Positions 490-4,752 of a DNA stretch of 6,498 nt are shown one piece after another. The stretch's first letter is position 1. Each line of letters opens with the position of its first letter. The DNA comes from a virus (Duplodnaviria > Heunggongvirae > Uroviricota > Caudoviricetes): IMG/VR virus record IMGVR_UViG_2579778894_000010; one strand, given 5' to 3'. Under the pieces are notes generated by a model that saw nothing but the letters and a program-made list of their open reading frames with translations, did not search any database and was not told the origin of the DNA. Position numbers and translations under genes: made by a program.

Positions 490-812
490 ACTTTCAGGCC
501 CCTCTCATGTAACCAGTGGGCTGCACGCAGCCTGGCGTTTTCCTCACCGGCAAGCAGTGCGCGGATAATCCCGACCGCCTCGCTGTCGTCGTCCTTCACC
601 GCGGTATGAAGAGTTATCCCCCGGGCCACGCCACGCTTTATCGTGATGACGCCTTTTTTCTCCAGTGCGCGAAGATGCTCCACCGCTGCATTCACCGAAC
701 GGTATCCCAGCATGGTTGCCACCTCCTGATTGGTTGGCGGAAAGCCACGTTCTTGCTGGTAAGAAATCAGCATATCCAGCACCTGCTGCTGGCATTGAGT
801 TAACGTCGTCAT
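486..812 (-). CDS. LexA N-terminal (winged-HTH) DNA-binding domain protein lacking the S24 peptidase domain
   Basis: 108 aa. Residues about 5-70 (QQQVLDMLISYQQERGFPPTNQEVATMLGYRSVNAAVEHLRALEKKGVI) closely resemble the LexA N-domain including the recognition-helix region SxNAAxEHLxAL. No Ser/Lys autoprotease domain; short C-terminal helical tail instead. ATGA overlap with the Dam stop at 809-812. Confidence 0.8.
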   Translation of the reverse strand: MTTLTQCQQQVLDMLISYQQERGFPPTNQEVATMLGYRSVNAAVEHLRALEKKGVITIKRGVARGITLHTAVKDDDSEAVGIIRALLAGEENARLRAAHWLHERGLKV

Positions 813-1462
813 GCCGCCATCTCCCTGACCAGTTTTTCCGCCTGCTGGCGAACCTGCGCCAGAAAGGCCTCACCACATGCCTCAAGTTCATCGCGCCCGA
901 TGTAGCTGATTGCCGGTCCCTTCCGGGTCTTGTCGAAAACAGCAATAGCACCAGCGAAGAAAGCGCCTGTCGGCACCTGCTTCTCGTCCTTCGGGATAAA
1001 CCAGGCTGGCAGTTCAAAACCAATACGCCCGCGAATAAAAGCAATATGGTCTGCATCTTCCGGCCACCAAACTTCGCTGGTGGCAGCTTTGATCAGGAAA
1101 ACATAGCGCCCGCCTTTATCACGCATGGCACTGGCATGCTTCATGATGTAACGCATGCCGGTGATGTATTGCCCCTCATGCTGACTGGCGCGGCTGTACG
1201 GGGGATTACCAAAGGCAGCACCTTTAAGCTCCGCAAGACGTTCTGACCAGTCATGCGCCAGCGCGTTGTCTTCCGCAGTGTAATACGCGGCGCATTTGGC
1301 GTTATCACCATCAGTAAACAGATCCAGAACAAACGGGCCAAACAGGGTGTTAATTCCCCAGAAAATGTTGTCCGGCGTGCGCCACTGATCGCCCACTTCC
1401 TTCAGTTCATGGGCTGGTTTGTTCCGCAGCTCCACCAGCGCCTGGCAATATTTATTACTCAT
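809..1462 (-). CDS. phage Dam-type DNA N6-adenine methyltransferase
   Basis: Catalytic motif NPPY in FGNPPYS; overall resemblance to phage orphan N6-adenine MTases. Start chosen at ATG 1462..1460 (MSNKYCQ...) because it overlaps the upstream stop as TAATG; the track ORF extends to 1495 with an alternative upstream start. Confidence 0.85.
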   Translation of the reverse strand: MSNKYCQALVELRNKPAHELKEVGDQWRTPDNIFWGINTLFGPFVLDLFTDGDNAKCAAYYTAEDNALAHDWSERLAELKGAAFGNPPYSRASQHEGQYITGMRYIMKHASAMRDKGGRYVFLIKAATSEVWWPEDADHIAFIRGRIGFELPAWFIPKDEKQVPTGAFFAGAIAVFDKTRKGPAISYIGRDELEACGEAFLAQVRQQAEKLVREMAA

Positions 1463-1950
1463 TAAGCCCCCACGTAATTCCCTGACAGATACCACTCTTC
1501 ACCCGATGCAGCGCGCTTGCTGCTTTTCCGTAAACACCGCTCACGACGCGCAAGAAAATTGTTTCGCTCTTGCTGGGAGTGGCTTTCACGGAATGCCGCC
1601 ATCCACACCGTTGCAGCACGACGGTATAAGCCCCTGGACTCCAGTTCTTCCGCCTGGCGAGTCAGGCACAAAATCACCCGGGGATCGTTAGTGCCGACAT
1701 AGAAATTGCGCACAGGTCTGGATTCACGAACTGGTTGCGGTTCCGGCTCCTGCGGTATCTCAGTCAGCCGCGGGAAATGTCTGCGTGTATCCCCTTCACA
1801 ACGGTGAGCCACACGCCCACTCTGACGTAACTTGCTTGCTGACTGCAGAACGCGCTGTCGTGAGTAACCTGCAAAAGCATCCGCAATGTCTCCGGAAGTA
1901 CACCCCGGATGGGCTTCAATGAATTTCTGAACGTCATTCAAAAGACTCAT
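1462..1950 (-). CDS. PerC-like transcriptional regulator with N-terminal extension
   Basis: C-terminal half (RQAEELESRGLYRRAATVWMAAFRESHSQQERNNFLARRERCL) matches the PerC/Pch-type pattern (GLWRRAA..W ... RR..C) as I recall it. ATG at 1950..1948 lies just after the upstream TGA (1953-1955) with a G-rich SD-like sequence; the track start at 1956 is GTG. Confidence 0.6.
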   Translation of the reverse strand: MSLLNDVQKFIEAHPGCTSGDIADAFAGYSRQRVLQSASKLRQSGRVAHRCEGDTRRHFPRLTEIPQEPEPQPVRESRPVRNFYVGTNDPRVILCLTRQAEELESRGLYRRAATVWMAAFRESHSQQERNNFLARRERCLRKSSKRAASGEEWYLSGNYVGA

Positions 1951-1952
1951 GA

Positions 1953-2894
1953 TCACCCCCTGAATCCTGCCGGGATCTGGCTGTAGTCCACGTTGTCGTA
2001 ACTGGCTTTGAAGTACGGGTCTTCGCGTTTTTCGGTGTACGTGCTGACGGACGGCGATAAGCGCAGGGAAAGCTCATCCCATTTTTCCCGCAGCTTCGAC
2101 GGGCTGAGCACGTTACGGCACCAGAACGGATCGCGACTGACGCGGCTGTACATCTCGCAGATTTGTTTATGAGTACGACCATCCTGCACACACATCAGGC
2201 GAATTTCGTTTGCCCAGGCTGTCCAGTTCGGTTCTTTGGGACGAACCACCTCGCCGTCACATTCGGCGGCATGCTCGTACAGGGCGATGATTTTTTTCCA
2301 GAGCCACTGTGCGCAGGTCAAATCATCCTGCGTCCCCCACTGGCGCTTTTTAGGGCTGAATACAACCGCATCAGGATGGCGAGTTAAAAAATCCTGTTCA
2401 GCCGTCTGCGTGTCCGGTTGCGAAGCGTCCGGACGAGAAGTTTTTTTATCTGACGGATCATGTTTTGATTTTACTGACGGATCCCCACCAGATTCTGACG
2501 GGTGAAAACCCGCTTTTTTGCCAGATTTCGACGCATCAAATTTTGACGGGTCAGATTTTGATGCGTCAGATTTTGACGGGTCAGAATCTGACAGTTGAGA
2601 AAATGCCGCTGCCTGAAGCTTCGCAACGTTAAGCTGATAAACATTCGACGCATTGCGGTTACCCTGGCGACGCGCCCTACGCGTTAACCAGCCTTCTGCT
2701 TCCAGCCGTGCGATAGCCGTTCTGACGGTACTCATCCCCGCGCCAATCTGGCGGGCAATGGTTTCAATTGATGGCCAGCACACACCTTCGTCATTACTGA
2801 AATCAGCCAGGCGGGCCATAATTGCCACGCTGGATAATTTCATGCCTGATGCAGCGCAACCATCCCATACATAGCCGGTTAATTTAGTGCTCAT
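1953..2894 (-). CDS. replication initiator (lambda O-like organisation: N-terminal HTH DNA-binding domain, repeat linker, DnaT-like C-terminal domain)
   Basis: 313 aa. N-terminal winged-HTH segment (VAIMARLADFSNDEGVCWPSIETIARQIGAGMSTVRTAIARLEAEGWL); low-complexity SK(S/F)D-rich linker encoded by the iteron array; C-terminal tail ending SQIPAGFRG resembles the C-terminus of host DnaT. SD AGAGG 8 nt upstream of ATG 2894. Confidence 0.8.
   Translation of the reverse strand: MSTKLTGYVWDGCAASGMKLSSVAIMARLADFSNDEGVCWPSIETIARQIGAGMSTVRTAIARLEAEGWLTRRARRQGNRNASNVYQLNVAKLQAAAFSQLSDSDPSKSDASKSDPSKFDASKSGKKAGFHPSESGGDPSVKSKHDPSDKKTSRPDASQPDTQTAEQDFLTRHPDAVVFSPKKRQWGTQDDLTCAQWLWKKIIALYEHAAECDGEVVRPKEPNWTAWANEIRLMCVQDGRTHKQICEMYSRVSRDPFWCRNVLSPSKLREKWDELSLRLSPSVSTYTEKREDPYFKASYDNVDYSQIPAGFRG
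2446..2598. repeat. iteron-like array (candidate origin of replication) inside the initiator gene
   Basis: Five tandem 15-bp units at 2524-2598 (GATTTCGACGCATCA, AATTTTGACGGGTCA, GATTTTGATGCGTCA, GATTTTGACGGGTCA, GAATCTGACAGTTGA) plus three more TGACGG-containing copies at 2446-2505. Each unit carries a short palindrome TGACGGGTCA. Confidence 0.6.
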
Positions 2895-2903
2895 GACCGA
2901 CCT

Positions 2904-3242
2904 CTATTTCCCTGAATTTACGACGAAACTGTTCGAGCGGGCTGAAGCACTCATGCTCATAGCCTTCGCGGAGGTAGATAACACGTTGTGTTTCCGGCTC
3001 CCAACGAATGACTCTGACGGGCACTCCGTAGTGATCTTTGAACCAGCGGTTAACTTGTCGCAAAGGACTGTCTCCTTCTGCCGGTTGAAATCACCCACAG
3101 CCCACTCTGCAAAGCTGTGGGTTACAATTTCCCTGTCACCTGGTACATTTACTGCATAGCAATACTCCACCTTCGCTTTTCCACCCGGTACAGGAAGCGC
3201 AATCAGTTGCGAGCGACGGTAGTGTGTTGTTAAACTGTTCAT
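2904..3242 (-). CDS. hypothetical protein (112 aa)
   Basis: ATG 3242..3240 overlaps the upstream TGA as ATGA; ends 10 nt before the initiator start. No recognisable motif; C-terminal third is low complexity. Contains a perfect 8-bp hairpin at 3094-3121. Confidence 0.5.
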
Positions 3243-3802
3243 GCGTTAGTTTCTCCACAGTCACGACACGCCACGGCGCCCGGAGCTGCACACTCGCGGG
3301 CGTCATTACTTTCTGAAATGCAAAAAATTTTGTAGACCAGTGCTGCATGCTCCTGCAGCTTCGAAATTGAGAGGTACAGCTCGTCGTTAATTGCTGTCTT
3401 CTCATGCGGTTCCACTACACCGTCTTCAATTGCTGAACGAATCTGTTTTGAATAACTGCCGATCTGTTCAATGACTTCCAGCAGGCGCTGGTTAATATCG
3501 GCGTTGTCCACATCCTCGACGTCAGGAAGAGACACAAAGACGCCATTTGCAGACTGCGCCACTGCGTCAGCAATGAAGTGAGTTCCACCAGCACGTTGCA
3601 AAATCATTGCCCATCCCAGCGGGAAAATCTGATCGCCATCGGCACGAAGGCGGTTAAATAATGCGTTCTCTGTTACATCCAGCCAGTCAGCTGCTTCAGC
3701 GTAACCACCCGGCAACTTTGCGATAGTTTTTCTGACAGCTTTCACGTACCACTCAGGCTGTTTTTCTACTTTCCAGTGATGCTTACCCACGGTTAGCCTC
3801 AT
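3239..3802 (-). CDS. CII-like/YdaT-like phage regulatory protein (tentative)
   Basis: Occupies the cII position directly after cro. Central segment ([41 protein letters not shown]) looks like a CII-type HTH; acidic C-terminal part. Start uncertain: ATG 3802 has a weak SD, in-frame GTG 3790 has GAGG at a 6-nt spacer, and the track ORF starts at 3904 overlapping cro. Confidence 0.55.
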
Positions 3803-3827
3803 CGTTCTGTGGTTTCTGTTAATCGAT

Positions 3828-4028
3828 TTATCCATTAGATTTTTCATAAAGCTCAGGTTTAAATGGCAACCGTCCGCAAGTTCTATATGCAGCTTCTGCT
3901 GCACGTCCTTTTGGAATTAACTGGCCCGGACGGTTTCGCCACTGATAAACGGCTTCAGTTGTTATGCCGAAAAAAGCAGCAACTTTCTCAATACTGCCGA
4001 AGTAGCTTTCGATATCGTCAGTTGTCAT
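3828..4028 (-). CDS. cro: Cro-type repressor (P22 Cro-like)
   Basis: 66 aa, divergent from the cI-like gene. HTH segment FGSIEKVAAFFGITTEAVYQWRN resembles P22 Cro as I recall it. Strong SD GGAGGG 5-10 nt upstream of ATG 4028. Confidence 0.8.
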   Translation of the reverse strand: MTTDDIESYFGSIEKVAAFFGITTEAVYQWRNRPGQLIPKGRAAEAAYRTCGRLPFKPELYEKSNG

Positions 4029-4125: not shown

Positions 4126-4752
4126 ATGGAAACGGTTGGTCAGCGTATAAAAGCTCTGAGAAGAGTTACCAGAACGTCCCAGAAAGAATTGGGTAAATTT
4201 TGTGGAGTAAGCGACGTTGCTGTGGGGTACTGGGAGAAAGACATCAATACCCCTGGCGGGGAGGCACTTTCGAAATTAGCGAAGTTCTTCAATACGTCAA
4301 TAGATTACATTCTTTACGGTGCTGAGTTTGAAGGCAAACTCGTCACAAACATGCGCAGAGTTCCTGTAATATCGTGGGTTCAGGCTGGGCAGTTTACTGA
4401 GTGCAGGGCAGCAGAAGTGTTTAGTGAAGTGGACAAGTGGGTAGATACATCATTAAAGGTTGGTGATAACTCATTTGCATTAGAGGTTAAAGGTGACTCC
4501 ATGACTAACCCTAATGGCCTCCCAACAATACCAGAAGGCGCAACAGTGATTGTAGATCCAGATGCAGAACCTCGTCATGGAAAAATAGTCATCGCTCGAC
4601 TTGATGGAACAAACGAAGCTACAGTAAAAAAATTAGTCATCGATGGCCCTCAAAAGTTTTTAGTGCCATTAAATCCTCGGTATCCCAACATCCCTATCAA
4701 TGGTAATTGCCTTATCATTGGTGTAGTCAAAGGAGTTCAATACGAACTCTAA
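4126..4752 (+). CDS. cI: cI/C2-type prophage repressor (XRE HTH plus S24 LexA-like autopeptidase domain)
   Basis: 208 aa. N-terminal HTH (QKELGKFCGVSDVAVGYWEK); C-terminal S24 signatures: catalytic Ser in GDSM, Lys in EATVKKLV, and a cleavage-site-like AG; overall resembles P22 C2. Confidence 0.9.
   Translation: METVGQRIKALRRVTRTSQKELGKFCGVSDVAVGYWEKDINTPGGEALSKLAKFFNTSIDYILYGAEFEGKLVTNMRRVPVISWVQAGQFTECRAAEVFSEVDKWVDTSLKVGDNSFALEVKGDSMTNPNGLPTIPEGATVIVDPDAEPRHGKIVIARLDGTNEATVKKLVIDGPQKFLVPLNPRYPNIPINGNCLIIGVVKGVQYEL

Follow-up and report, generated by a model that had tools for sequence, protein, structure and literature searches.

A Candidate Replication Origin Within the Linker-Coding Part of the Initiator Gene of a Lambdoid Prophage

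The Candidate Origin

The window analyzed here is a 6,498-nucleotide stretch of the virus record IMGVR_UViG_2579778894_000010 (Caudoviricetes), a 6.5-kb immunity and replication region of a lambdoid prophage, which is assigned to the SfIV/SfII-like type of E. coli and Shigella and carries its early-right operon on the minus strand. The block between positions 2433 and 2600, which falls in the linker-coding part of the gene of the prophage's own replication initiator, is probably the replication origin, a reading to which a probability of roughly 0.75 can be attached. This agrees with the original prediction, which had proposed a candidate origin at this site, and the support for it comes from the presence of an initiator homologue in the position of gene O, the freezing of synonymous sites in the block, the survival of its motif through a frame shift in the phage phiP27, and its inheritance together with the N-terminal domain (N-domain) of the initiator. 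The positions of the features are collected in Table 1.

The Repeat Sites

Eight 10-mers of the form TGAYNNRTCA are found on the plus strand between positions 2451 and 2598, all of them within the initiator open reading frame (ORF; 1953–2894), where they occupy codons 99–148, between a winged helix-turn-helix (wHTH) domain (residues 1–98) and a helical domain (residues 162–278). The spacings from start to start are 24, 21, 33, 15, 15, 15, and 15 bp, every one of which is a multiple of three, and all eight sites lie in a single reading frame, encoding ...LSDSDPSKSDASKSDPSKFDASKS...HPSES..GDPSV..HDPSD. The sites are where they had been predicted, although the description of eight copies of a unit of approximately 15 bp is accurate only for 2529–2598, which forms a true 15-bp array (class A), while the other three sites are dispersed (class B). 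The accompanying claim, that the repeats lie inside the initiator gene and encode its SK(S/F)D linker, is borne out by the position of all eight sites in frame in the 313-residue ORF, in a segment that is disordered in the AlphaFold2 model (residues 103–161, pLDDT <50, coinciding with the repeat-encoded peptide).

Exact copies of TGACGGGTCA account for two of the eight sites, with four others differing at one or two positions, and two at three positions. Tandem Repeats Finder reports the array at 2522–2585, with a period of 15 (4.3 copies) or 30, and a repeat-family search also groups the array copies, in the families D1 and D2. Six distinct matches with no more than two mismatches fall within 150 bp, whereas 1000 first-order Markov simulations of the window never gave more than three, and the family-derived pattern GAYNNNTCARAW occurs nine times in the window, against an expectation of 0.46, with eight of the nine being located at 2448–2586.

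The wider family was represented by 80 loci encoding the same N-domain, one per bacterial species, of which the 68 that include both the domain and the linker were aligned by codon. A position matrix of 667 units from these 68 loci shows the TCA to be 85–96% conserved per base and the Lys codon to be AAA in 98% of the units, while the central NNN is variable. The motif around the site at 2496–2505 is almost unchanged in 27 diverse loci. The internal palindrome proposed for TGACGGGTCA stands for the outer TGA...TCA, given that the dyad symmetry of the sites involves no more than the three outermost bases of either half, but a palindromic constraint at the inner positions was rejected, as there is no covariation between positions 4 and 7.

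The number of units (five residues, or 15 bp, each) ranges from 0 to approximately 12 among otherwise close homologues (P0006, P0015, P0030, P0048, P0049, P0064, and P0069). Some homologous copies lack the whole tandem array, yet retain both of the GATC-bearing sites; these copies may be defective prophages, or the dispersed sites may represent the minimal core. The gap between the array and the dispersed sites contains a terminator-like hairpin, CGGGTGAAAACCCG followed by CTTTTTTGCC, at 2499–2521 on the plus strand, that is, antisense to the initiator, with the hairpin itself at 2499–2512. This feature is probably incidental, given its poor conservation among the 68 loci.

Conservation of the Block as DNA

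The repeat block is conserved as DNA, and not merely as a protein repeat, as judged from the freezing of its synonymous sites and from the phiP27 frame shift. In the codon alignment, the median normalized codon entropy is 0.86 in the N-domain (codons 6–95) and 0.045 in the linker block (Mann-Whitney p = 9e-11), and the majority fraction at third positions rises from approximately 0.5 in the N-domain to 0.8–0.9 in the repeat block. The fraction of codons identical to those of the window is 0.43 in the N-domain versus 0.85 in the linker, with the linker being higher in 67 of 67 loci. The frozen stretch, at approximately 2433–2600, very nearly coincides with the interval of the original prediction (2446–2598). 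Within the block, Ser is encoded by TCA in 68/68 loci, Val by GTA in 67/67, and Asp by GAT in 68/68, with both Lys AAA and Phe TTT at 100%, while the conserved amino acids of the DNA-binding domain use nearly every synonymous codon. In the linker, TCA and TCT together make up 84% of the Ser codons, versus 25% elsewhere in the same genes, and AAA makes up 98% of the Lys codons, versus 62%. Free positions also occur inside the block, at the central NNN, the GGN of codon 136, and the GAY of codons 105 and 110, where the normalized entropy reaches 0.5–0.76.

The phage phiP27 (AJ298298), whose N-domain is 62% identical to that of the window, retains the 23-nt motif GGTTTTGACCCTTCAGAATCTGG after a one-base indel, so that the peptide VLTLQNL replaces FDPSESG. 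In its initiator gene (L087, 1501–2427), the frame-shifted motif lies at about 1900–1925 of the locus. Both of the GATC-bearing sites of this phage read GATCCGCAAG, rather than GATCCGTCAG, which may reflect co-variation with its divergent N-domain.

These data bear on the possibility that the repeats are simply a low-complexity protein linker of SDxSK units, produced by replication slippage, in DNA that has no function of its own. This account would be in keeping with the single reading frame of all the sites, with a disordered peptide rich in Ser, Asp, and Lys, and with the variation in unit number between close relatives, which slippage predicts. It does not explain the near absence of synonymous variation in 68 species beside a saturated flanking domain, nor the use of TCA and TCT for Ser in genes that elsewhere prefer AGC, the strict division of GAC and GAT by position, or the retention of the motif in another frame in phiP27, and in some homologues the corresponding position holds repeats that are out of frame. 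With both the synonymous sites and the frame shift against it, this explanation is already largely refuted, and it is scarcely credible.

The conservation might also be the product of the recent horizontal spread of a 170-bp segment in which the repeats serve as a hotspot of recombination. Lambdoid phages are mosaic, the junctions between modules adjoin the block, and repeats promote unequal exchange. A recent sweep would not, however, leave invariant and free positions alternating at the scale of single codons, a mixture which argues for site-specific selection, rather than a recent sweep or shared ancestry. The linker, in addition, contrasts with the domain in all 67 loci compared, including those of Yersinia, Providencia, Proteus, Pantoea, and Rahnella, and horizontal spread is very unlikely.

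Selection might, finally, be acting on an RNA structure or a translational signal in the initiator mRNA. The RNA of the coding strand folds better than its shuffled versions (−52.7 kcal/mol, z = −4.8), but this fold is a by-product of the dyad-symmetric units. The first hairpin depends on the number of units, which varies from 0 to 12, and the second, which can be aligned, has no compensatory changes, with four of its 14 pairs being broken in most of 27 sequences. The gathering scan returned no Rfam family, and an RNA element was rejected as a candidate on these grounds, leaving this as the least probable of the explanations considered. No promoter was found inside the block.

The Repeats and the DNA-Binding Domain as a Predicted Specificity Module

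The same N-domain and repeat block are joined to at least three unrelated types of C-terminal domain (C-domain). In the phage mEp460, conversely, the C-domain and the downstream genes of the window are shared (approximately 97% identity) only up to about position 2449, just past the last site. On the upstream side, mEp460 has another N-domain, together with four different 15-nt repeats (CATCGGGTCAAAATG), which are 23, 46, and 24 bp apart, and thus in different reading frames, followed by an AT-rich run. The phages SfV and Stx2a_F451, and distant homologues from Psychrobacter, Thorsellia, Phlomobacter, and others, each have their own repeat family in the same position, typically with a spacing of 22–23 bp. 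Other N-domains accompanied by other repeats at this place are found in mEp460, SfV, Stx2a_F451, and the loci L081, L082, L084, and L085, and the repeats of the relatives with other N-domains are often out of frame.

The co-inheritance of the block with the N-domain, whatever the C-domain, and the presence of different repeats with different N-domains support the view that the repeats are cis-acting DNA sites tied to the DNA-binding domain of the initiator, and that the two form a single predicted specificity module. It was by this pattern that the iterons of lambda, P22, and L were identified (PMC8022706).

The AT-Rich End and the GATC Sites

The AT-richest 40-mer of the initiator gene is located at the end of the block furthest from the promoter, where it overlaps the last two sites. 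Its GC content places it at the 0.2 percentile within the gene, while over the window as a whole it ranks at the 2.3 percentile, although it is shorter and less extreme than the AT-rich segment of lambda. This end of the block also holds a pair of GATC sites, the first of which is present in 68/68 loci, and the second in most (the Asp codon is found in 59/68). The Asp-Pro codons of the class B sites are GAT-CCN in 126/126 cases, whereas GAC is used in 90/90 cases in the tandem array, and it is the constant GAT-CC of the dispersed sites that gives rise to the two GATC sites conserved across the family. The operon of the initiator includes a Dam methylase gene (809–1495, minus strand), and in many relatives the initiator is closely followed by DNA methylase genes, which belong to several families. 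Methylation may be linked to the function of the origin.

The same features can be read in favor of a cis-acting DNA element other than an origin, to which the initiator or a different protein would bind, such as a set of sites for autoregulation or for the control of copy number (“handcuffing”), a roadblock to transcription inside the early operon, or a Dam/SeqA sensor. Selection at the level of the DNA demonstrates that the DNA has a function, but not which one, and a role in control or sensing would suit the conserved GATC pair, with its contrasting use of GAT-CCN and GAC, and the methylase genes found just downstream, both in the window and in many relatives. Plasmid iterons, for their part, serve in control, as well as in initiation. 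The position of the block, its co-inheritance with the N-domain, its AT-rich end, and its likeness to the origins of lambda, P22, and L all fit an origin, however, and no other repeat cluster or AT-rich candidate is visible in the 6.5-kb replication region. The two roles can also coexist, and a function in control to the exclusion of an origin is unlikely.

The Initiator Protein

The DNA of the initiator gene is 98–99% identical to that of genes of the Shigella phages SfIV and SfII, and of several E. coli phages, in which the near-identical genes are labeled “DNA replication protein O”, “primosomal protein”, or “replication protein”. The protein matches PHROG 391, “replication initiation O-like” (E = 5.5e-135), with residues 1–313 aligned to positions 1–298 of the 298 of the profile, and Pfam HTH_36 (42.9 bits, cut-off 25). 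Phage_rep_O is absent from its Pfam matches at E <= 0.01, which are HTH_36, GntR, HTH_29, PaaX, DnaD_N, RP-C, and MarR. On these profile matches, the initiator stands outside the Pfam family of lambda O and inside the HTH_36-type phage initiators (PHROG 391), and the “DNA replication protein O” labels of the phage records are functional analogies.

The helical C-domain is presumed to be the module that recruits the host replisome. A fold search with the full model is dominated by the wHTH domain, and the C-domain alone returns weak matches at best; the domain similarities to the DnaD and SPP1 G39P-type replisome organizers are all weak.

The protein ends in a short tail which resembles that of the E. 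coli primosomal protein DnaT. BLASTP against the DnaT of E. coli K-12 aligned only the last nine residues (E = 0.009), with no other significant similarity, and detected no homology to the N- or C-terminal domain of DnaT. Two residues of the tail, G310 and R312, never vary, and two more, P308 and F311, are at least 90% conserved. The IPxGFRG tail is also found at the end of initiators with other C-domains, such as orf39 of SfV, whose last 24 residues are identical to those of the window, and it accounts for the label “primosomal protein I” that some phage records give. By mimicking DnaT, this short motif may engage a host replication partner. The 2026 paper on the structure of the preprimosome mentions no role for the tail. 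The proposal that the absence of the tail is accompanied by a loader gene downstream was rejected, as the relatives without the tail are also mostly without such a gene. In relatives, the gene that comes after the homologous initiator gene is DnaC-like in phiP27 (L18) and encodes a primase-helicase in Stx2a_F451 (gp36), which supports the identification of the initiator.

A tentative and rather doubtful extension of these observations would be a one-gene replication module, in which a single protein reads the in-frame 15-bp array in its own gene and recruits the host helicase through an IPxGFRG motif copied from DnaT, with no need for a phage loader. The Dam methylation of the two GATC sites might then gate the firing of the origin, possibly through the methylase of the operon.

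Proposed Mechanism and Comparison with Known Origins

From the arrangement of the block and its initiator, we infer a sequence of events in which the 313-residue initiator would be expressed from the early-right operon on the minus strand, following induction. Its winged-helix N-domain would then bind the eight TGA-N4-TCA sites, five of them packed at 15 bp and three spaced toward the GATC-containing AT-rich end, and the resulting nucleoprotein complex would destabilize this end (approximately 2436–2475), so that the block would act as an origin. The helical C-domain and the DnaT-like tail may subsequently bring in the host DnaB/DnaC or primosome machinery, a route of helicase recruitment which is proposed because the operon encodes no helicase or loader.

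The likeness to lambda claimed by the original prediction is apt as far as the architecture goes, in that the iterons fall in the stretch of the initiator gene that codes for the linker, and one end is AT-rich. Four iterons are annotated inside gene O of lambda, and the part of O that the iterons encode is a flexible linker. In both cases, partly dyad-symmetric repeats lie inside the initiator gene, in the part coding for the linker that joins a DNA-binding N-domain to a C-domain for recruitment, the AT-rich segment, which in the window is a short candidate stretch, is promoter-distal, the element has the cI-cro-cII-O position in the early-right operon, and the N-domain and its sites act, or would act, as one specificity module. 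The lambda iterons are located near the center of gene O (PMC8022706). The window differs from lambda in its HTH_36-type N-domain, with no Phage_rep_O match, in having eight sites with an in-frame 15-bp tandem period, rather than four sites at 20–24 bp, in a site sequence that is unrelated to the ATCCCTCAAAACGAGGGA of lambda, and in the DnaT-like tail of an initiator that is not followed by a P gene.

The phages P22 and L also have repeats inside their gene 18, which, in L, are six imprecise copies of an 11-bp unit (PMC8022706). Like the window, these phages are lambdoid and have initiators that are only distantly related to O, with their own in-gene repeats, but both encode a DnaB-type helicase (gene 12) beside the initiator, which the operon of the window does not, and the repeat sequences differ. 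In the lambda-type origins of Stx phages (933W and the “P27” of the Wegrzyn laboratory), there are six iterons, and additional iterons lengthen the initiator; changes in the iterons that leave the O protein unaltered abolish plasmid establishment, which indicates a dual coding and cis-acting function (PMC7466680). Unit number and protein length also vary together in the family of the window, although the Stx-phage initiators are true homologues of lambda O, with lambda-type iterons. The “P27” origin of Kozlowska et al. was thus rejected as a source of data on the present family, since it has lambda-type iterons and is not the L17 gene of AJ298298, which is related to that of the window. The plasmid iteron origins of the RepA, pi, and TrfA class, in turn, are intergenic, with units of 17–22 bp, and usually have DnaA boxes, whereas the block described here is intragenic, with a period of 15 bp and no DnaA box.

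A number of points weigh against the interpretation of the block as an origin. The AT-rich stretch is short and interleaved with the sites, unlike the clean block of approximately 40 bp of the lambda type, and there are no DnaA boxes within 2303–3176. The 15-bp spacing is shorter than the 20–24 bp or so of lambda and most plasmid iterons, although the 11-bp unit of phage L provides a precedent for short repeats. The inner positions of the palindrome, moreover, do not covary. The analogy with lambda is also incomplete, in that no gene for a helicase or helicase loader (P, gene 12, or DnaC-like) follows the initiator in the window, nor in most of the 68 loci. The sites share one reading frame in 381/381 cases in the subfamily, and frame alone cannot distinguish DNA repeats from protein repeats, while a control scan of lambda O (80 loci) recovered N-domains that were 100% identical, so that no synonymous contrast could be computed. 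The literature searched contained no experiment on binding or origin function in this initiator family, and no paper describing this origin: the origin is not discussed in the papers on the Shigella phages, and two papers from the Llarena group on the “Eru” replication types of Stx phages deal with other gene sets and describe no origin.

Genomic Context

The initiator gene comes after the cI, cro, and cII-like genes, in the place that O has in a lambdoid early-right operon, and is followed by genes encoding a PerC-like regulator, the Dam methylase, a protein with a LexA DNA-binding domain, and RusA. The small gene of the PerC family or wHTH type (1462–1956, minus strand) overlaps the stop codon of the initiator by four bases (start at −3), as it does in many relatives, and this four-base overlap suggests that the regulator is translationally coupled to the initiator.

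Two overlapping minus-strand ORFs, in different frames, lie upstream of the initiator (2884–3063 and 2904–3242), and both have strong family matches. The 59-residue ORF (2884–3063) matches DUF4222 (E = 8.6e-19) and phrog_1343 (E = 2.1e-34), and the 112-residue ORF (2904–3242) matches phrog_1170 (E = 4.6e-70), with phrog_20047, which has 63 residues, covering just residues 1–63 of the latter. This suggests either that the real genes may be one of approximately 63 residues and a DUF4222 gene, or that the overlap, or a frameshift, is genuine. The annotation of SfIV shows the 112-residue ORF alone.

Table 1. Features of the candidate origin, its initiator, and the neighboring genes (positions in the window; sites are given as plus-strand 10-mers).
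Feature	Position	Strand	Remarks
Block under DNA-level purifying selection	~2433..2600		codons ~99-154; holds all 8 sites; proposed origin core
Class B dispersed site TGACGGATCA	2451..2460	+	second conserved GATC; last site before the module junction
Class B dispersed site TGACGGATCC	2475..2484	+	carries GATC; codons GAT CCG TCA GTA 94-100% invariant in 68 loci
Class B dispersed site TGACGGGTGA	2496..2505	+	on the coding strand, within TTTCACCCGTCAGAATCTGG
Class A array site CGACGCATCA	start 2529	+	
Class A array site TGACGGGTCA	start 2544	+	
Class A array site TGATGCGTCA	start 2559	+	
Class A array site TGACGGGTCA	start 2574	+	second exact copy
Class A array site TGACAGTTGA	start 2589	+	
Tandem array, class A	2529..2598		five 15-bp units; coding-strand consensus TCT GAC NNN TCA AAA (S-D-x-S-K)
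AT-richest 40-mer of the initiator gene	2436..2475		27.5% GC; candidate unwinding region, promoter-distal end of the array
GATC pair	2456-2459, 2480-2483		in the AT-rich end of the block
Replication initiator, helix-turn-helix	1953-2894	-	313 aa
Winged-helix DNA-binding N-domain	2601..2894	-	codons 1-98; presumed iteron reader; AlphaFold2 model
Helical C-terminal domain	2061..2411	-	codons 162-278; confident in AlphaFold2
C-terminal tail SQIPAGFRG	1956..1982	-	aa 305-313; 8/9 identical to the end of K-12 DnaT (SQIPPGFRG)
Small gene, function unassigned	2904-3242	-	112 aa
CII/YmfL-like regulator	3239-3904	-	early-right operon
P22-Cro-like gene	3828-4028	-	early-right operon
cI-type repressor, S24 peptidase	4126-4752	+	

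Prevalence and Implications

The 281-bp segment at 2380–2660 matches 2941 of 5426 complete E. coli genomes, in up to five places per genome, with 11 matches being on plasmids. The replication module is also present in the serotype-converting Shigella phages SfII and SfIV, and in prophages of Klebsiella, Salmonella, Yersinia, Pantoea, and Providencia. The RefSeq label of the gene is “helix-turn-helix domain-containing protein” only, with no origin being annotated. The architecture is thus a known one, that of the textbook lambdoid origin within a gene, while this particular origin is unannotated, yet very common. The most original leads are the DnaT-like tail and the conserved GATC pair.

A number of prophages with the same type of origin can reside in one host, which raises questions of cross-activation or competition between them, and the knowledge of the origin and its specificity module would help to predict which co-resident prophages cross-activate or compete. 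A known origin would also be of use in the construction of vectors, and in the reading of coverage peaks in induction-sequencing data. The contrast in synonymous sites, for its part, provides a clean computational signature for origins that are hidden inside genes. The DnaT-like tail, finally, offers a testable handle on the way in which phages without a loader capture the host helicase, and perhaps on the binding partner of the DnaT C-terminus itself.

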